Shown: positions 1-9,753 of the stretch, in pieces
How the letters are laid out: every line of letters begins with the position of its first letter
How positions within the stretch are numbered: the stretch's first letter is position 1
DNA from: a virus
Taxonomy: Duplodnaviria; Heunggongvirae; Uroviricota; Caudoviricetes
Virus record (IMG/VR): IMGVR_UViG_2734482541_000013
Reading direction: 5' to 3' (one strand)
DNA: 9,753 nucleotides
The notes under the pieces: generated by a model
Told to the model about the DNA's origin: nothing
Seen by the model: the letters and a program-made list of their open reading frames with translations, nothing else
Database searches by the model: none
Translations under genes and position numbers: made by a program

Positions 1-235
1 AGGGACAGCTGATAGAAACAGAAGCCACTGGAGCACCTCAAAAACACCATCATACACTAAATCAGTAAGTTGGCAGCATCACCCCGCCACAGAACAATTA
101 TTGCTTTTGCCGTTGATGACAATAAAGTTTTTATCGCAGGCGTATACCACGGTGGGCAAATCTATGAAACCGATTTTTTATCCAGTGCACCGTAAAACCC
201 CCATCCTTCAGGGCGTGGCGGATATCAAACTTTGG

Positions 236-1318
236 TCATTTTCTCTGGCTGATCTTTACCGGATAACCATCCCGAAGATCAATTAAGTGCTCCGGTTCAG
301 AAGCAAACCATGCATAAGATCCCCACGCCAATTCTGGTATTGCCTTTTTAAAAGGCAGAGCACTTCTGTCCATAAATGCCGTAAGGAATGCAAGATTTTT
401 CTCGCTGAACCCAGCGTCAATAGCCAAATGAGTGAGAGTAACTTTTCGTTCCCTGTTTATAGGCCCATCTGTCGCAACTACTTCAGTGAAAACTACAAGC
501 ATGTCCGAACCCGTTCGGTCCTCTCCCAAATCAATCAAAATAATATCTGGAAGTGCTTTTGAGGCATCAATATTCAGCCCCAATGCTTTTGCCAATACAT
601 CATCCTGAGCAACAACTTTATTCCCGGATTCAGACAACCAGAGCACAGTTGGATTCTTAAGAAAATTAGGAGCAAAAACTTCGATGACGGCCTTAGCTAT
701 TGTACTTGACGGGCCCGGAGCTAAAGTTCTCTTCTCTCCATTTGGGAAAGTGACGACTACGGCATCAGCAGCAATCACTGCCCCTGATTTCAATAAACGC
801 AACCTAGCAAGAGCGGCTTTGTTCAAATGATTTTCTTGCCAGGAACTTATTGCACTCAGCAGCGAATCTCCTTCAAGCCCGGCATCAAAGAGTGCTGCAA
901 AAGAGCGATTCAAACTGTAACGAGGACGAGAGGATGTGGTGGGTATACCTTTACGCTCAACAATTGCATTGCAAGGTATTAGGCCATTTTTTATAGTTTC
1001 ATCACGTATTGGCTCACGCGTATTTTCCGCATACCATGCATCAGCAGGCCTTATCTTTTGTTTAGAGAAAGTCATCTTTACCCAGCTTTCTCTGGACGCA
1101 TCATCAGTAAGAGCAGCCTGCGAATCTCCCATACTTACAACCTGGCTGGGCCTTATCCATCGCCCCAGCCCCTCAACCGCACCAGCATAAAACATGACAA
1201 AAATTGTTTTTGCAGCTATTTCCCGAATTAAATATCCACGATTCTCAGTCCCTTCAGGGAAAATTAATTGTAATCTTTCCCGGATAACATTCAATGGGGG
1301 AACAACAGGCAGATTCAT
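236..1318 (-). CDS. Putative restriction endonuclease or other effector partnered with the upstream methyltransferase (Type II R-M-like cassette); family unverified
   Basis: 360-aa ORF. Its ATG (1316-1318) overlaps the methyltransferase stop (1315-1317) as ATGA, implying translational coupling. Sampled 60-nt lines are about 35-43% GC versus about 52% in neighbouring phage genes. I could not place a PD-(D/E)xK motif with confidence; resemblance to BsuBI/PstI-family endonucleases is a tentative recollection only. Confidence 0.5.
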   Translation of the reverse strand: MNLPVVPPLNVIRERLQLIFPEGTENRGYLIREIAAKTIFVMFYAGAVEGLGRWIRPSQVVSMGDSQAALTDDASRESWVKMTFSKQKIRPADAWYAENTREPIRDETIKNGLIPCNAIVERKGIPTTSSRPRYSLNRSFAALFDAGLEGDSLLSAISSWQENHLNKAALARLRLLKSGAVIAADAVVVTFPNGEKRTLAPGPSSTIAKAVIEVFAPNFLKNPTVLWLSESGNKVVAQDDVLAKALGLNIDASKALPDIILIDLGEDRTGSDMLVVFTEVVATDGPINRERKVTLTHLAIDAGFSEKNLAFLTAFMDRSALPFKKAIPELAWGSYAWFASEPEHLIDLRDGYPVKISQRK

Positions 1319-3147
1319 GCAATCATCACTCCATAGAAACCAGCGATAGTTCTCTCAATAATCCGTCTGTGGACGCCAGCATCAATTAACGATTGAATCT
1401 CCATCACCTGCTCCAGAGAAGGCAACGGGATTGAATTCAATTCATAGGCCGAAACAGCAACACTTCCGCTTATACACCTGAACGCCCGATCGACAACATG
1501 CGAATTAAGTAGCATATCAATAACATCAGGGCGAACCGCAGAGAACAATCCGTTTGAATATACAATATTAATATGGTTTTCAACTACTACGCCACCAGTT
1601 TCATCTATAAATCCCTGAGGTAAAATTGCCGCTAAAATCCTTCTGTCCTGTTCCTTCGATGTTGTCCGCTGAACAAGCACACATTCAGATTTTGTCACAA
1701 GGAAACCCTGTTGTGGGGTTATATCGATATAGGGAACATGATTTTTTCTGTCTGCACTAAAACGAAAACCAGCTGAAGTTATTGATTCCGCCCAGACTAA
1801 TGGGTAGCTATTTTTTCCTTTCGTCGTACGCAACTGCGACTTAAATCGATTCCAGACTAACTGACCTGTAGAGACTGAGTATCCCAGATCAGCTAAACGC
1901 GTAGACATCTGTTTTAATACATTAAGAAAACAGGCATCATCTTTAACGCGTGGCAAAAGCCACGTTGCTCCACCTTTTTCTATATCAACATTACCTATTT
2001 TCTCAATTTTTGCTTTGTTCAACCCCTTAGGGACAAGTGAGGATACCTGGGCCCGAACTTTATGTTCTCCCGCCTTGAATGCTGTCAACATTGTTTCCTG
2101 GAGAACATCGTCAAAGACCCCATCCCTGTCAGTGACGAAATCAAGGGCATACGGAGTAGTTTTTTCGGTCAAAAGGGTTCGCAGCGCGGTGAAATACTGC
2201 CCACCAAGAAAAGAAGTTGGCGTAAGAAATGCAATAACTCCTGTTTTCTCTTTAACCATGCGAACAGCTAAGTCGGTGAACAATCCATATAGATTTGCAT
2301 GACCAAATAACGAACGAGAATATTTTTCTCTCGTTTTAATATCGAGAGTGACACGTCCGTAAGGCGGATTCCCTACCACAAGATCATAACCAGAAAATTT
2401 ATCTTGCTGAAGCGCATCAGCAACAATAATTGTATCTTCAGGCAATCTACGTTTTACCTTTACACATAGTGGCATTAGTACAGATTCGAGCAATACCAAA
2501 CTCATCCAAGCCGCAAATGGATCGATCTCTATCCCCTTTAAACGACGACTGATTCTCCTCAACATCCATTCAGGGGAAGACCCCTTGTCTTTTTTTAACA
2601 TTCGAATGGCTACTGGTGCCAAAAATGCACCGCCACCACACGCAGGATCAATAACCGATGCATGAGAAAAATCAACACCAGACTTTTCAGCCAGGTCCAA
2701 GAGACGCGCTACCAAAGGTGGGGGGGTATAGTAAGCCCCCAATTCCGAACGGTAAGCGGATGGCAGCATTACCGTATAAATTGACCCAATCAGATATCCA
2801 GCGTCCTCCGCCGGAAATTGAGCAATAAGCTCACCTGTTCGTTCAGCGAGCTCGCGTGCATCACATGGAATGTCTTCTATGTAAACAGTGTGCGGTACTG
2901 CCCTCATTTTAATGCTGCTTTTTTGCTTTTTTGCAAGGGTATCCCAATATGCAGCTACGATGCTGAAGCAGTATGAGCGGGCATGCATCAACCTTGACTG
3001 CCCGGTTTTGTAATTGCCCGCATAACCTTTGGCCATGGCTTTACAAGTTTGATATCTTTCCAGATTAGAAAACTCATTATCTGTAAAAAAATCAAAATGT
3101 TGCACATTCATAATGTAAAATCCTAATGTATCAAACATGCGGGCCAT
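1315..3147 (-). CDS. N6-adenine DNA methyltransferase, gamma-class (Eco57I/TaqI-like), with a C-terminal target-recognition region
   Basis: 610-aa ORF. Motif X-like GAYYTP at residues 137-142; SAM-binding motif I DPACGGGAF at residues 167-175 (nt 2626-2649); catalytic motif IV VVGNPPYG with NPPY at residues 260-263 (nt 2359-2370). Motif order X-I-IV followed by about 340 aa is typical of gamma-class amino-methyltransferases with a C-terminal TRD. Confidence 0.85.
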   Translation of the reverse strand: MARMFDTLGFYIMNVQHFDFFTDNEFSNLERYQTCKAMAKGYAGNYKTGQSRLMHARSYCFSIVAAYWDTLAKKQKSSIKMRAVPHTVYIEDIPCDARELAERTGELIAQFPAEDAGYLIGSIYTVMLPSAYRSELGAYYTPPPLVARLLDLAEKSGVDFSHASVIDPACGGGAFLAPVAIRMLKKDKGSSPEWMLRRISRRLKGIEIDPFAAWMSLVLLESVLMPLCVKVKRRLPEDTIIVADALQQDKFSGYDLVVGNPPYGRVTLDIKTREKYSRSLFGHANLYGLFTDLAVRMVKEKTGVIAFLTPTSFLGGQYFTALRTLLTEKTTPYALDFVTDRDGVFDDVLQETMLTAFKAGEHKVRAQVSSLVPKGLNKAKIEKIGNVDIEKGGATWLLPRVKDDACFLNVLKQMSTRLADLGYSVSTGQLVWNRFKSQLRTTKGKNSYPLVWAESITSAGFRFSADRKNHVPYIDITPQQGFLVTKSECVLVQRTTSKEQDRRILAAILPQGFIDETGGVVVENHINIVYSNGLFSAVRPDVIDMLLNSHVVDRAFRCISGSVAVSAYELNSIPLPSLEQVMEIQSLIDAGVHRRIIERTIAGFYGVMIA

Positions 3148-3361
3148 AACATCTCATGGTGGCGCATAGCAAACTGGCCCGAAGAATATCACGCACCAAG
3201 TCGATCTCATAACCCGTTATGACAATAAATCTTTGTAGCTGAACTCACTTGGTGATTTGTCAATCATTCCTGGCCTCCAGTTCGTCCTGAATCTCTTTAT
3301 CGAGTTCACCGTATTTGTTAGTCCTCATCACTCACGACTTGACTTCCAGAAATAACCTTGA

Positions 3362-3718
3362 TTATTCGGGGCTATATTTTGTCACCCTGCGTATCCGCGC
3401 TTTCGCATTACGCTCAATCTGGATTAGCTTTTCTATATTTTTTCGCCTTTCCCGCTCCTCCTGGCGCAAGAGCCTTACATCATCTGCCAGTCTGGTTTCT
3501 CTTTTCGCCACAGAGAGCATCCAGTCAAATGGCTCCACAACTGCACCGCAAATTTTACAGCGGACCTGACGCTCTTTTTCGTCAACCCGGACAGAAGCGT
3601 GATGGCAATATGGTCTTTCCGATGGCTCATAAAGAAAATTAACCTGATTACGAGGGTTATCCTCTTTTACCGGAAATAAAACAATATTGCTTAACTCATC
3701 TTCTGGTTTTATTTCCAT
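3362..3718 (-). CDS. Hypothetical small protein with a putative zinc-ribbon (C-H-H ... C-x-I-C) and a basic coiled C-terminus
   Basis: ATG at 3716-3718 is preceded by a strong Shine-Dalgarno AAGGAGAGGAG. The six-frame ORF extends to 3775, but the internal ATG with the RBS is the likelier start. Motif CHHASVRVDEKERQVRCKICG. Confidence 0.55.
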   Translation of the reverse strand: MEIKPEDELSNIVLFPVKEDNPRNQVNFLYEPSERPYCHHASVRVDEKERQVRCKICGAVVEPFDWMLSVAKRETRLADDVRLLRQEERERRKNIEKLIQIERNAKARIRRVTKYSPE

Positions 3719-3775
3719 GCTCCTCTCCTTTGATGCGAATGCCAGCGGTAATTGAAGCCTGATAGCTAATTTCAC

Positions 3776-4198
3776 TCACAGTACCGCCTCCTGAAAATCA
3801 CCCTGATAGAAAGCCGGTACACGCTGCATAACTTCACTCTTCCGGCACTCGCGACAGATTATGTTCTGATGTCTGTCGTAGCGGCGTATTTCTCCGTCCG
3901 GTAATGACCAGATAAGGTCCGGATCAACCACAGATGGTTTCTTCAGCTTTGCCCTCGAGAGTTTTTTGCGGGCGTTTTGCCAGTCCTTACGAGCCTGTTC
4001 AGACGGGAATAACCCGTAGCCAGAGTTGTATACATCCCCACTGGCAACCAGCTCTCTGGCGAGAACGCTTATTAAATATCTTGTCGCCCCGGTTTTAGCT
4101 TCCAGTTGTCGTAACGTCTCGCGCCCACTCTGGCGTACGAGTTCAACAACCTGCCCCTTAATTTTTTCCCGCTCTTCCTGTGTAAATACTTTTGCCAT
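3776..4198 (-). CDS. Hypothetical prophage protein
   Basis: 140 codons from ATG 4196-4198 (MAKVFTQEE...), with a G-rich stretch upstream. Lies 15 bp downstream of the preceding gene's stop, co-directional with the replication module. No motif recognised. Confidence 0.55.
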   Translation of the reverse strand: MAKVFTQEEREKIKGQVVELVRQSGRETLRQLEAKTGATRYLISVLARELVASGDVYNSGYGLFPSEQARKDWQNARKKLSRAKLKKPSVVDPDLIWSLPDGEIRRYDRHQNIICRECRKSEVMQRVPAFYQGDFQEAVL

Positions 4199-4213
4199 AA
4201 GCGCCCCCGGCAA

Positions 4214-4939
4214 TCACTTTTCCGACACAATACGACCGGAGGAATCGACAATCTGTCGAACAATATCCCGGTGCTTGTTCAGCTCCCGCAACGCGGCGCA
4301 GACACGCTCCCACTTCTGGACATGACTTTTCGCCCGACGCAGTTCGCGGTTTGCCATATGCAGCGATGGTAAAACCAGGTCATCCGCTTGCGTTTCGGTG
4401 AACGATGGCAACGACTGCACAATGTCCGCCACAGTTTCTGTTTTAATTTCTTCCTGTGTTGCAGCTTCCTGTACCGGTAACGCAACACCTGCTGGCTGAG
4501 GAAAGACTTTACCATCCGTTTCCGCTATGGATGCGGCTTTCGGCTCTGCCGGTAAATCAGCGCCCGGTATGCAGTACCGAAATTTACCGCCCTGATTCAC
4601 GCGAATCAGACGCCCTTTGCTGATTGCCATGGCCAGCGATGAATTCGCCCGGCGGGAGGTAATCCCGAACATCAGTGCCAGCTCATCCGCCGTTTGTGGG
4701 CCATGTTGTTCAATCGCCTCAGTCAGCATTTGCGCTGTCACTTTCGGTACCGGTGACACTGGTTCACTTTCACCAGCCTGAATCAGCCACCACATCGAAC
4801 CCTTGTTATCCGCTTCACCACGGCGCTTCAGTTTCCACAGTTCGTTGACCGCATCTTCACGGCTGATTCCAAGGCGGGACGCCACCACATGTGAAGAGGC
4901 TCTTTTCAGTGCTTTCAGTGCGTCAAATACAGTTTCCAT
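4214..4939 (-). CDS. Hypothetical prophage protein with two winged-helix-like segments
   Basis: ATG at 4937-4939 (METVFDALK...) is preceded by GGAGGA 7 nt upstream; the ORF track starts at an upstream TTG. Starts 21 bp after the DnaC-like stop. Two HTH-like stretches ([19 protein letters not shown] and [24 protein letters not shown]). Confidence 0.55.
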
Positions 4940-4960
4940 TAAAACATCCTCCAACAAAAA

Positions 4961-5556
4961 TTACTTCACAACTCCCGGAAAGCTGACATTTGAACGCCAG
5001 CTATCCCAGTTAAACGTCACCCACCGACAACCGTTCATGGTCATGCGGTCCATAATCCTCTCACCAAGAAGCGTGCTCATTGCGGCATGATTCAGGTTTG
5101 TTAACATCCCGACACTGCACAGTGATGCTGTCCGGCGATCAATTATCTGGTGCAATACCACCTGCTCGTTTTTCGTCTCCCGCTGAATGCCTATTTCATC
5201 CAGGACCAGCAAATCAACCCCGCAAAGCTCCTGTAAAAATTTTTCACCGGATTTGCCGTTGTCGTAGCTGTCATGCAACACGCTCATGACATCAGACTCG
5301 GTGACGATAATCACGCTGCGCCCCTTCGCCATCAGCCGGTTACCCATCGCCGCTGCAAGGTGATTTTTCCCGGTGCCGGTTTTACCGCTGAACACAAAAT
5401 TCGTGCACCCGGTCATCAGTTCGTCAGCTATGGATTTGGCCTGGCTCAGCGCGTATTTTTGCCCGTCGTTCTGCACCTGATAATTCGCAAACGAGCATTT
5501 GCTGTGCAGAGGCTGGATGCCCGAACGATTCAGGATTTTTTCCACCCGCAACTGGC
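4961..5556 (-). CDS. DnaC-like replicative helicase loader (AAA+ ATPase, IstB/DnaC family); N-terminus lost in the assembly gap
   Basis: Walker A GKTGTGKNHL, Walker B LLVLDEIG, and DnaC-type C-terminal signature WVTFNWDSWRS. The six-frame track fuses it to the upstream gene only because the N-run is a multiple of 3. Confidence 0.85.
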
Positions 5557-5847
5557 NNNNNNNNNNNNNNNNNNNNNNNNNNNNNNNNNNNNNNNNNNNN
5601 NNNNNNNNNNNNNNNNNNNNNNNNNNNNNNNNNNNNNNNNNNNNNNNNNNNNNNNNNNNNNNNNNNNNNNNNNNNNNNNNNNNNNNNNNNNNNNNNNNNN
5701 NNNNNNNNNNNNNNNNNNNNNNNNNNNNNNNNNNNNNNNNNNNNNNNNNNNNNNNNNNNNNNNNNNNNNNNNNNNNNNNNNNNNNNNNNNNNNNNNNNNN
5801 NNNNNNNNNNNNNNNNNNNNNNNNNNNNNNNNNNNNNNNNNNNNNNN
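5557..5847. other. Assembly gap (291 N)
   Basis: Uninterrupted run of n characters from 5557 to 5847. Confidence 0.99.
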
Positions 5848-6829
5848 GGAGCAACCAGGGGTTTTCAAAATTCCGGTCCGGCCCAAAAAACGTCGTCGCT
5901 CGCTGAACAAATTCCGTTCCCGCTTTCCCGGTCGCCGCCAGGTATCTCGCGTAACGCCTCACACCATCCAGCATGGTCTCTGGTGGCACCCCCTCGCGCA
6001 ATCTGGCCTTCCAGGCACTGAATGCGGATTTCTTCGGGTTTGCCCCGGCACGCAACGGGTATTCCCGCCAGACCTGTTCGAACACATCCGGATAATCCAC
6101 TCGTCCCACAGGCTGCCCGGTGTTTTCCGGGGCTACCCGATCGGCTTCCCGCTGAATGGCGGAATCGGCTTCAGGCTGCTGCAGTTGGAGTGATTGCTCC
6201 GGCCTTGCGGTCATCACCTGCTGCACAGCGCCCGAATCGGCTTTCAGCGCATACGCTGAATCGGCTTCCGGTGTCGAGCCTGCTGGCTGACCAGGATTGA
6301 CGGTCTGAACATCCCCTGCCTGGTTCGTGGCGTTTTTTACGCCATGGACCATAGTGTTTTGATCTTCTTTATCTGTATCTTTATCTGTATCTGTCGTGAC
6401 TCGTCGTGACATGTGCGTGACATTTCGTGACGCGCCGTGACAATCGCCATTTTGTTCCCGCTTTCTTTCCCTCTCTCGCTGCGCCCTCTTGCGCTCTGCA
6501 GGAGATTTTGCGGTTTGCGAAATATTGCCGTTGTCCTCTTTAAGCACCTGGCGTTTTTCCCATCCAGTGATTAAATCACCATCAAGTACCCGCCCCTGCA
6601 TCGTCTGCAAAATTGAATCAATTACCTCTTCTGTCACGTCGAGCGCACTTGCCAAATCTTCTGTCGTGACATCAATGTGACCTCGCGTGACATTTCGTGA
6701 CGCGCTCACCAGGAGGTGGATATACACTGCCATCACTGTTGCAATTGGCTGCCCTGACACCCTGGCAATTGTTCGCCACTTAGGGTCATTTGGCATGTCA
6801 TGCCATAATCTGAGCCAGGCGTTAGCCAT
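5848..6829 (-). CDS. Phage replication initiation protein, lambda O-like / YdaU-like; C-terminus lost in the assembly gap
   Basis: ATG at 6827-6829 with RBS AGAGGTGA upstream (a GTG at 6835 is an alternative start). Position immediately upstream of the DnaC-like gene, as in O-P / ydaU-ydaV arrangements. Acidic/basic low-complexity linker and internal iteron-like repeats. Confidence 0.7.
6366..6441. repeat. Iteron-like array 1: tandem 12-mer TCTTTATCTGTA x2, then five CGTGAC repeats at 10-11 bp phasing
   Basis: 12-mers at 6366-6377 and 6378-6389. CGTGAC at 6395, 6405, 6416, 6426 and 6436. An AT-rich stretch lies immediately upstream. Located inside the O-like coding sequence. Confidence 0.6.
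6633..6705. repeat. Iteron-like array 2: four (C/T)GTGAC repeats at 10-11 bp phasing plus one inverted copy
   Basis: CGTGAC at 6665, 6686 and 6696; TGTGAC at 6676; inverted GTCACG at 6633-6638. The 21-mer GCGTGACATTTCGTGACGCGC at 6685-6705 is identical to 6415-6435 in array 1. Confidence 0.6.
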
Positions 6830-6900
6830 ACTCACCTCTTCTGATACCGAATCTTTTTACTCACGAGTTGCCGGGAGCGATTCGATATGGCTATTGTCAG

Positions 6901-7662: not shown

Positions 7663-7697
7663 TCAAAGTGATTAGCAATCTTATTAGAATTGGATGT

Positions 7698-8198
7698 ATG
7701 AAAAGAAAATCATTGTCAGACACCGACCTCAACGCCGCCAGAAGACTGAAAGAAATCTGGATGGCAAAGAAATCTCAGTTGGGATTGACTCAGGAACGTG
7801 CGGCGGAAATTATGGGGTTTTCAACACAAGGGGCGGTAAGTCACTACCTAAATGGTCAAACCCCACTAAACCTTGAGGCTGTTCTAAAGTTTGCTGGCTT
7901 ACTGAAAGTTCCCCCTGAGTCAATCAGGCCAGACATGGTAGATTTGCTGCAAATTGCAAGGATGTATTGTCGAGAACCACAGCAAGATAACATAGTCGCA
8001 TTACCAGCAGACACAGAACAAACAGAGGATGAACTACCGTTTGCCGTAGAGCCGATGGAACGAGATTTAATCCATACGTTCAGAGCTTTTCCGAAAGAAG
8101 ATCAAGAACACATGCTTCAGGAGATGAAAGATAAAAAAGAATCAATGGATCGTACGGTTGCGCGGTGGTTAGCTGCACAAAAAGGCCGTCGCGCCTAA
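7698..8198 (+). CDS. CI-like HTH transcriptional repressor (PaaR2-like regulator of the downstream toxin-antitoxin pair)
   Basis: XRE-type HTH LTQERAAEIMGFSTQGAVSHYLNGQ. ATG at 7698 is in frame with the 176-aa six-frame ORF, whose upstream part lacks an RBS. Followed 19 bp later by the antitoxin gene. Confidence 0.7.
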   Translation: MKRKSLSDTDLNAARRLKEIWMAKKSQLGLTQERAAEIMGFSTQGAVSHYLNGQTPLNLEAVLKFAGLLKVPPESIRPDMVDLLQIARMYCREPQQDNIVALPADTEQTEDELPFAVEPMERDLIHTFRAFPKEDQEHMLQEMKDKKESMDRTVARWLAAQKGRRA

Positions 8199-8217
8199 AT
8201 CAGAGGAGATATGTAAA

Positions 8218-8412
8218 ATGAGTACAGTCCTTTCCCCAATGGTTTCAGAATTTGAGACAGTTGAGCAAGAAAATAGTTACAACGAATGGCTGCGGGCCAA
8301 AGTAGCAGCAAGCCTCGCGGATCCCCGCCCGGCGATTCCGCATGATGAGGTAATGGCGGAAATGGAACAAATTATTGCCCAAATTGCTGCTGCAACTCAC
8401 AGAGGTGAATAA
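8218..8412 (+). CDS. paaA2: PaaA2-like antitoxin (partner of ParE-family toxin)
   Basis: RBS AGAGGAGA 8-9 nt upstream. The N-terminal 45 aa (SPMVSEFET.EQENSYNEWLRAKVA.SLADPRPAIPHDEV) match my recollection of E. coli O157 PaaA2; the C-terminal tail differs, so the paralog (PaaA1 vs PaaA2) is unresolved. Stop TAA overlaps the toxin ATG (TAATG). Confidence 0.75.
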   Translation: MSTVLSPMVSEFETVEQENSYNEWLRAKVAASLADPRPAIPHDEVMAEMEQIIAQIAAATHRGE

Positions 8413-8702
8413 TGTTACCCGTTTTATGGCTACCATCTGCTCGTGATGATTTGCGCCAGATCGTAGCCTACATAGCTAAAGAAAATCCCGCGGCAGCACG
8501 CAGAATGAAAATTCGAATTGAAACATCCGTTTTGCCGCTCACAGAGCATCCTTACCTGTATCCTCCAAGCGAGCGAGTTCTTGGTCTTCGTGAAATTGTA
8601 ACTCATCCTAACTACATCATCCTTTACCGAGTAACAGCATCAAGCATAGAAGTAGTAAATATTGTGCATTCTCGAAGACAGTATCCAGGCAAAAACAGTT
8701 AA
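8412..8702 (+). CDS. parE2: ParE/RelE-superfamily toxin (ParE2-like)
   Basis: 96-aa ORF, start overlapping the antitoxin stop. Size and sequence character (LPVLWLPSARDDLRQIVAYIAKENPAAA ... IILYRV ... IEVVNIVHSRR) fit ParE-family toxins; operon order regulator-antitoxin-toxin. Confidence 0.75.
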   Translation: MLPVLWLPSARDDLRQIVAYIAKENPAAARRMKIRIETSVLPLTEHPYLYPPSERVLGLREIVTHPNYIILYRVTASSIEVVNIVHSRRQYPGKNS

Positions 8703-9511: not shown

Positions 9512-9753
9512 TCCCTGCGTCCTCTAAGCTTTTGATATAGCGGTCCTCCAAGAAGCGGTAAATTTTGTCGAAATCATCTTTTCCCTCTGGTTTATTCAGA
9601 GGATTACAGGACCCGTAAGTAGCGGCATACATTTCAACCGTTTGGTAATGACTCCAACTTATTGATAGTGTTTTATGTTCAGATAATGCCCGATGACTTT
9701 GTCATGCAGCTCCACCGATTTTGAGAACGACAGCGACTTCCGTCCCAGCCGTG

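Follow-up and report, generated by a model that had tools for sequence, protein, structure and literature searches.

Three catalogued genes beside a restriction-modification cassette in an IS1-bounded prophage remnant, probably part of a lambdoid early operon

The DNA analyzed here, referred to as the window, is a stretch of 9,753 nucleotides that is 100% identical to the Shigella sonnei chromosome CP104423.1. Its two ends (positions 1-84 and 9644-9753) are the ends of IS1, with IS1 genes on both sides and chromosomal genes beyond. These flanking chromosomal genes are presumably those found around the Qin prophage of K-12, which would place the remnant at the Qin locus. The content of the remnant is limited to an immunity region, replication genes, three genes that are the subject of this study (g1, g2 and g3, the trio) and a restriction-modification cassette; the integrase, Q, lysis and structural genes are all absent within it. 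Because the remnant has been cut by IS1 and is devoid of Q, lysis and structural genes, the trio cannot serve a phage cycle in this host. The features on which the analysis centered are as follows.

236..3147, minus strand: type II restriction-modification cassette (Pfam and PADLOC matches)
236-1318, minus strand: BsuBI/PstI-family endonuclease of the cassette (Pfam and PADLOC matches)
1315-3147, minus strand: N6-adenine methyltransferase of the cassette (Pfam and PADLOC matches)
3148..3361, no strand: junction between backbone and cassette; cassette-free prophages stay homologous only as far as 3358 or 3376, at the g3 stop
3718 (ATG) to 3362 (TAA), minus strand: g3, 118 aa; unnamed CHCC zinc-ribbon and coiled-coil protein, PHROG 1621
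3720..3730, minus strand: Shine-Dalgarno sequence of g3, AAGGAGAGGAG (direct sequence reading)
4198 (ATG) to 3776 (TGA), minus strand: g2, 140 aa; LygF/DUF977, Ren family
4939 (ATG) to 4214 (TGA), minus strand: g1, 241 aa; YdaW family, DUF1627
4947..4952, minus strand: Shine-Dalgarno sequence of g1, GGAGGA, 8 nt from the ATG (direct sequence reading)
4961..5556, minus strand: 3′ part of a DnaC/IstB-like loader gene (ydaV-like; PF01695, 3.1e-18; 82% identical to K-12 YdaV)

The ORF listing and a reading of the sequence revealed that the minus-strand ORFs of g1, g2 and g3 fill positions 3362-4939. The stop of the DnaC-like gene (4961), the 5′ end of which falls in a masked run of N (5557-5847), is followed after 21 nt by g1, after a further 15 nt by g2 and, 57 nt downstream of that, by g3, confirming the sequence-only reading of this DNA, in which the three genes had been described as co-directional and tightly packed. 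A good Shine-Dalgarno sequence had also been assigned to each of the first two genes; this proved correct for g1, but upstream of g2 there is merely a G-run (GGGGG, 4208-4204) near the g1 stop, and it is g3 that has such a sequence instead. Between the g3 stop and the methyltransferase ATG (3147) lie 214 nt, and the trio does directly border the cassette, as had been stated. The chosen ATG starts of g1, g2 and g3 match the conserved N-termini of their homologues, and longer ORF versions beginning with TTG or GTG lack support. A scan of positions 3000-5100 detected no promoter-like site and, on the coding (minus) strand, no terminator-like site, and the trio is therefore consistent with a single operon, co-transcribed with the replication genes. 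Neither Rfam families nor tRNAs were detected in scans of the whole window.

Pairwise dN/dS values of the three genes against their homologues ranged from 0.11 to 0.28, demonstrating at the sequence level that the trio is under purifying selection, and the exact g1, g2 and g3 proteins, which are Shigella sonnei proteins, are each found on about 1,000 or more public contigs. These findings, together with the family matches described below, indicate that g1, g2 and g3 are genuine protein-coding genes. The earlier statement that none of them has a recognizable function was overstated, since each is a member of a catalogued family (PF07789, PF06163 and phrog_1621, respectively). As identical sequences are moreover annotated in thousands of genomes, the trio is already known as sequence, and in place of "hypothetical", g1 can now be labeled YdaW/DUF1627, g2 LygF/DUF977 (Ren family) and g3 PHROG 1621.

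The g1 protein matched the Pfam model of DUF1627 (PF07789) from end to end (model positions 1-155 of 155; 5.9e-93, 309.2 bits compared to a cut-off of 28.1), as well as phrog_630 (1.7e-121). It is 80% identical to the full-length YdaW of Rac 442/2 and 57% identical to K-12 YdaW over the first 151 amino acids, which hold the two HTH domains, and its position after a ydaV-type helicase-loader gene corresponds to the gene order of both Rac 442/2 and K-12. These comparisons identify g1 as the orthologue of ydaW (b1361) in the Rac prophage of E. coli K-12. The K-12 protein is, however, truncated, with unrelated sequence taking over beyond about residue 151, whereas g1 is intact and has both the linker and the C-terminal helix. 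In the AF2 model, g1 was predicted to consist of an N-terminal three-helix HTH (residues 4-39), a complete winged helix (69-123), a disordered acidic and Pro-rich linker (131-188) and a long C-terminal helix (185-239), with a low overall confidence (pLDDT 61) that rose to about 80 for the second wHTH. Foldseek aligned the model with the tandem wHTH of ScpB and DIP2311 over 142-151 columns (E 1e-4 to 6e-3), a likeness to be read in light of the fact that the relative orientation of the two g1 domains is not predicted by the model, and the second domain superposed on MarR/ArsR domains at 1-2 A over 55-61 residues. The tandem winged-helix-like segments that had been noted from the letters alone are thus present in g1 as two HTH/winged-helix units. 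The resemblance to ScpB/DIP2311 and to MarR/ArsR is at the level of the fold only and extends to no sequence relationship, and the long disordered linker and C-terminal helix of g1 are absent from ScpB-type and MarR/ArsR proteins. In PADLOC-DB 2.0 the best hit of g1 had an E-value of 0.0099 (12.5 bits), which is not a defence-protein match, and a direct BLASTP comparison of g1 with Ren gave no match. In an overexpression screen with the retron toxin RcaT, it was the shortened K-12 ydaW allele that scored as a hit (preprint 10.1101/2020.06.22.160242).

The g2 protein matched Pfam DUF977 (PF06163) over model positions 1-134 of 134 (2.2e-30, 105.9 bits compared to a cut-off of 22.1). It is 89% identical to LygF of Rac 442/2, the gene being named lygF in Rac-like phages, and we found no material difference between g2 and the LygF/DUF977 proteins of Rac-like and P-EibA-like prophages. 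In g2, an invariant block lies between the N-terminal winged helix and the C-terminal motif, NIICRECRKSEVMQRV, which is common to g2 and lambda Ren. A winged helix in DUF977 has already been reported (PMC2686095); two variants of it exist in the family, and the g2 allele of the window is one of them. Paralogy between the second winged helix of g1 and that of g2 found no support (hhalign E 0.072, probability 0.8%).

Two lines of evidence bear on the kinship of g2 with lambda Ren. Both proteins matched the same profile, phrog_142 ("Ren-like exclusion protein"), over their full lengths, g2 with residues 1-139 (2e-46) and lambda Ren with residues 1-95 (1.6e-41), by which g2 is classed as a member of the Ren family. 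The direct alignment of the two covers only the C-terminal 20-23 residues (BLASTP 1e-5), and hhalign gave a probability of 77% and an E-value of 2e-5 with a g2 profile that is shallow (Neff 1.3). Since the pairwise match is limited to the C-terminal motif and lambda Ren falls short of the Pfam DUF977 model, the relationship is remote and at the level of the family. The two proteins have in common the C-terminal motif [IV]-x-x-EC-R-x-S-x-x-M-x-R-V, an N-terminal region of the winged-helix type and a slot after the replication genes in the rightward early operon, whereas they differ in length (140 aa for g2, 96 aa for lambda Ren), and g2 has an inserted invariant central block (GDVYNSGYGLFPSEQARKDW...).

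The g3 protein matched phrog_1621, a PHROG with no annotated function, with residues 1-115 on profile positions 1-118 of 134 (1.1e-54), and no Pfam, NCBIfam or PADLOC family above threshold. In an alignment of 33 homologues ranging from Escherichia to Erwinia, Serratia and Yersinia, the residues C38, H40, C54 and C57 are invariant, the N-terminal peptide ELSNxVxFP (ELSNVVxFP) is conserved and the C-terminus, LRxEExxRRxNIEKLIQIERNAKARIRR, is almost invariant. The residues E102, N104, K106 and R108 are likewise invariant. The AF2 model of g3 (pLDDT 75 overall, and above 90 for residues 81-110, the conserved half of the helix) begins with a disordered stretch, forms two beta hairpins at the zinc site and closes with a single helix (63-115), which ends in the near-invariant L-x3-E-x-N-x-KAR-x-RR. 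A zinc ribbon with a basic coiled tail had been anticipated for one of the three proteins, and the alignment and the AF2 model of g3, with its long basic helix, agree with that description. A Foldseek search of the model against PDB and BFVD returned nothing below E 0.28, and the comparison with the TFIIB-type ribbon 1pft gave an E-value of 0.42. Assignment to the TFIIB-type zinc ribbons (PF08271) was rejected, as the score of 21.6 bits is below the cut-off of 29 and the ligands are C-x-H ... C-x2-C and not four cysteines. The N-terminal peptide is presumably neither a clamp-binding motif nor an SSB-tail mimic, being off the canonical consensus.

At E<=1e-3, a profile search with the g3 family brought in 1,672 representatives of clusters made at 50% identity, a number that falls to 273 at E<=1e-10, and across this breadth the signature C-x-H-x9-R-x3-C-x2-C-x4-DPFD ... 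L-x3-E-x-N-x-KAR-x-RR is kept. By this measure the family is much larger than PHROG 1621 suggests, and no Pfam or NCBIfam model describes it. Distant members, in which we found no Pfam domain and the source names of which are uninformative, also lie in phage early regions. The breadth of this family, described by no curated domain database, is the sole mildly novel element of the present analysis.

As judged from the predicted structures and family matches, none of g1, g2 and g3 looks like an enzyme, and all three have what appear to be non-enzymatic binding architectures. Neither the individual proteins nor profiles gave a significant match in sequence searches of the PDB, NCBIfam and PADLOC searches contained no family for any of the three, PADLOC-DB 2.0 gave no match at all for g2 and g3, and a literature search by protein accessions and PHROG numbers found nothing.

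With megablast sensitivity, we searched 5,426 complete E. coli genomes for the trio and for the cassette, counting either any match or matches with at least 80% cover; the population statistics rest on these complete genomes because a scan of contigs for g3 yielded only 13 loci.

g1: any match in 2,396 genomes (~44%); at least 80% cover in 809
g2: any match in 4,051 genomes (~75%); at least 80% cover in 3,891
g3: any match in 1,679 genomes (~31%); at least 80% cover in 1,671
g1-g2-g3 together and in order: 233 genomes
Restriction-modification cassette: 2 of 5,426 genomes, adjoining g3 in both

Loci with g1-g2, with g2-g3 or with g2 alone are all frequent among these genomes, showing that the genes of the trio are mosaic backbone modules that can be exchanged separately. 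DUF977 genes follow replication modules of unrelated kinds, some with a DnaC-type loader, some with only a replisome organizer and some with an HTH-type protein; the gene order is O-P-ren in lambda and ydaU-ydaV-ydaW-lygF in Rac. In Erwinia, g3 lies in the nin region directly before Q, with LygF absent nearby. The genes following g3 in cassette-free prophages are DUF7167, small ORFs, hokD, DUF968, RusA and Q, and both E. coli carriers have a ParDE pair and the cassette instead of the block from DUF7167 to Q.

When the junction was used as a query, homology in all other genomes broke at query positions 459 and 477; L019 aligned only from 3347 upward, and the cassette carriers L001 and L002 aligned from 84. 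The 214-bp junction contained no meaningful repeats. The three carriers share a block of ~99% identity that takes in the cassette, g3 and the 3′ two-thirds of g2, with a recombination break point inside g2 near 4054, and g1 and the replication genes are of different history. These alignments indicate that in this lineage g3 and part of g2 came on the recombination tract of the cassette as a recent shared block.

Taken together, the genome counts and the break in homology at the g3 stop indicate that the trio belongs to the replication/nin backbone and that the cassette is a rare later insertion, placed right behind that stop. We put the probability at about 0.9 that these three genes come from the rightward early operon of a lambdoid prophage of the Rac/Qin type, located in the slot after the replication genes that holds ren and the nin genes in lambda, and that the cassette is not theirs. 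This agrees with the suggestion of the sequence-only reading that the genes sit where lambdoid phages carry ren/nin accessory genes, as borne out by the grouping of g2 with lambda Ren in PHROG 142. Its further question, whether the genes travel with the replication module or with the methyltransferase cassette, is answered at the population level in favor of the replication/nin backbone. What it had named as speaking against it, clear homology to characterized housekeeping phage proteins with synteny independent of the cassette, was found in part: the synteny is indeed cassette-independent (233 genomes for the trio and 1,671 for g3, compared to 2 for the cassette), but the homologues are not functionally characterized housekeeping proteins. 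The finding is thus an ordinary one, and the suspected tie of the trio to the cassette is unsupported.

With regard to function, our leading reading, a tentative one that falls short of even odds, is that the trio encodes non-enzymatic early adaptors shielding phage development from exclusion or abortive infection. The proteins would be made alongside the replication proteins upon loss of the repressor, each joining a long helix or disordered tail to a module (a winged helix or zinc ribbon) that would bind nucleic acid or protein. As non-essential adaptors they might then spare early development, and replication especially, from exclusion and abortive-infection systems, whether host-borne or belonging to resident prophages, by analogy with the action of lambda Ren against Rex. 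Hints of counter-defence are the label of phrog_142 and the classical Ren phenotype, protection from Rex exclusion, reportedly described by Toothman and Herskowitz in 1980. Ren has been found to interact with the Rex proteins in a two-hybrid assay (preprint 10.1101/2021.04.19.439022), and K-12 ydaW scored as a candidate blocker of RcaT in one overexpression screen (preprint 10.1101/2020.06.22.160242). These thin hints (Ren against Rex, and ydaW against RcaT), the only functional ones, would by analogy both point to counter-defence. As the window is devoid of rexAB, a Rex-resistance phenotype has no obvious local target.

A rather unlikely alternative is that the trio encodes replication accessory factors, acting, for example, in transcriptional activation of the origin, loader handling or replisome stability, with no defence role. 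The Ren-family gene is always found directly after the replication genes in lambda, Rac and other prophages, although the modules preceding DUF977 are of four unrelated types (P-type, DnaC-type, organizer only and HTH-type), which argues against one specific partner. The tandem winged helices of g1 resemble DNA-organizing proteins such as ScpB; g1 and g3 are nevertheless dispensable in many otherwise similar prophages. The authors of the two-hybrid study themselves termed Ren "likely involved in DNA replication" (preprint 10.1101/2021.04.19.439022), whereas lambda ren is non-essential and is needed for neither P-lethality nor replicative killing (PMC3640518).

Returning to the counter-defence reading, an extension of it, which we consider unlikely, is that g3 is the founder of a large phage family that binds a conserved host target or nucleic acid and represents a new takeover or counter-defence factor, and that together with g2 and YdaW it would make the post-replication slot an anti-abortive-infection locus. 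If this were true, the N-terminal peptide of g3 would be a docking peptide and the post-replication slot of lambdoid phages a general locus of this kind. For all their presence in 31-75% of complete E. coli genomes, the genes of the trio have only putative roles.

Distinctly less plausible is that the trio encodes transcription regulators that act on phage or host promoters or on RNA polymerase, in the timing of nin and late genes or in the lysis-lysogeny decision. The similarity of g1 and g2 to MarR, ArsR, TrmB and Crp-type regulators, in weak profile matches and in fold, and the weak TFIIB-like character of the g3 zinc ribbon would fit such a role, but every regulator match is under the curated thresholds. 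K-12 YdaW is also listed among predicted transcription factors (PMC9308461), yet the scans of 3000-5100 and of the junction detected neither operator-like repeats nor promoter-like sites close to the genes. In Erwinia the g3 gene lies directly upstream of the Q antiterminator, whereas its position differs between genera, which would not be expected if it were tied to a neighboring target.

Finally, it is highly improbable that g3 or the whole trio is part of the cassette and was acquired with it, for example as a controller that delays expression of the endonuclease: g3 does lie directly upstream of the methyltransferase and within the ~99% block of the three carriers, and distant members of its family occur near methyltransferase genes in metagenomic phage contigs, but methyltransferases are common cargo in this phage region, so that the base rate of such neighbors is high, cassette-free prophages match the window only up to the g3 stop, and the population data (g3 in 1,679 complete E. 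coli genomes, the cassette in 2) effectively refute g3 as a cassette controller. Known restriction-modification controller (C) proteins resemble g3 in position only, as a small gene just upstream of the operon; they have an Xre-type HTH, whereas g3 has none, does not travel with the cassette and is found widely as a phage gene.

For this window itself little is at stake, as it holds catalogued and very common prophage genes in a dead remnant. A PaaA2-ParE toxin-antitoxin pair is located at 8218-8702, next to the repressor gene, and the trio is most likely carried passively between two stabilizing modules, this pair and the restriction-modification system. Both are modules of a type that penalizes loss, which may explain the retention of the segment.

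The window carries IS1 sequence at each of its ends, and one of these copies cuts a toxin gene:

1-84 and 9644-9753, IS1 terminal sequences (both ends)
84-195, plus strand, 3′ part of a second toxin gene of the RelE/ParE family, truncated by IS1

The chromosome of Shigella sonnei (CP104423.1) matches the window at 100% identity, and there the same segment has IS1 copies on either side, outside which lie chromosomal genes of the Qin-prophage locus. The IS1 sequences at both ends, together with this match, therefore identify the window as a defective prophage remnant bounded by IS1.

Part of the replication region of this remnant is hidden by masking:

5557-5847, masked run of 291 N, reaching from the 3′ end of the replisome-organizer gene into the 5′ end of the DnaC-like gene

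The corresponding gap in the complete chromosome is 240 nt, a difference of 51 nt from the window. The masking produces an artefactual 624-aa 'fusion' ORF at 4961-6835. In some S. sonnei assemblies (L028, 11829-13624; L031, 11828-13623 and 9234-9979), the methyltransferase and DnaC-like genes are each broken into two ORFs, which means either that the remnant is still decaying or that these sequences contain errors.

Recombination has left a trace inside the Ren-family DUF977 gene (g2):

~4054, recombination break point inside g2 (3776-4198)

Escherichia coli FDAARGOS_943 is 99.1% identical to the window across 84-4054, and similarity is lost past 4054. DUF977 has two N-terminal winged-helix alleles that differ in their recognition helices, while its C-terminal half is invariant. 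Cargo genes concentrate in a hot spot that lies either between DUF977 and the zinc-ribbon gene (g3) or after them, the contents of which vary by prophage and include DUF4406, Ea22-like and RseB-domain proteins and other SAM-dependent methyltransferases, as seen in matches from complete E. coli genomes (H142-H144, H158 and H180-H182) and in the E. coli cassette carrier L002 (9613-10513).

Toxin-antitoxin genes lie beside the repressor gene, in what looks like a three-component PaaR-PaaA-ParE module (7668-8702):

7668-8198, plus strand, cI/PaaR-like repressor gene
8218-8412, plus strand, PaaA2-type antitoxin, directly 3′ of the repressor gene
8412-8702, plus strand, ParE toxin, after the antitoxin

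In lambda, the slot directly downstream of the repressor gene is occupied by rexAB, the position that the PaaA2-ParE pair holds here. The same prophage also has a Ren-family gene, g2. An intact ParD-ParE pair adjoins the restriction-modification cassette in both E. coli carriers (L001 and L002; 5538-6112).

The g3 family shares a short conserved motif:

3670-3700, E-L-x-N-V/I-V/I-x-F-P, N-terminal residues 7-16 of g3

This motif sits in an otherwise disordered region, is kept throughout the broader family, and may serve as a docking peptide. As with g3 in the window, distant family members on metagenomic phage contigs adjoin DNA methyltransferase genes or sit one gene off (L021/L022, 5159-6561; L023, 4799-6584), an adjacency that may be due to chance because methyltransferases have a high base rate in phage early regions. 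A 90%-identity cluster of Serratia g3-like proteins (that of P0369) mixes 146-aa 'hypothetical' with 127-aa 'RusA family endodeoxyribonuclease' entries, owing either to a mis-transferred RusA name or to differing gene calls. At an Erwinia locus (L017, 7615-8396), g3 is immediately preceded by a RusA gene, and the two overlap.
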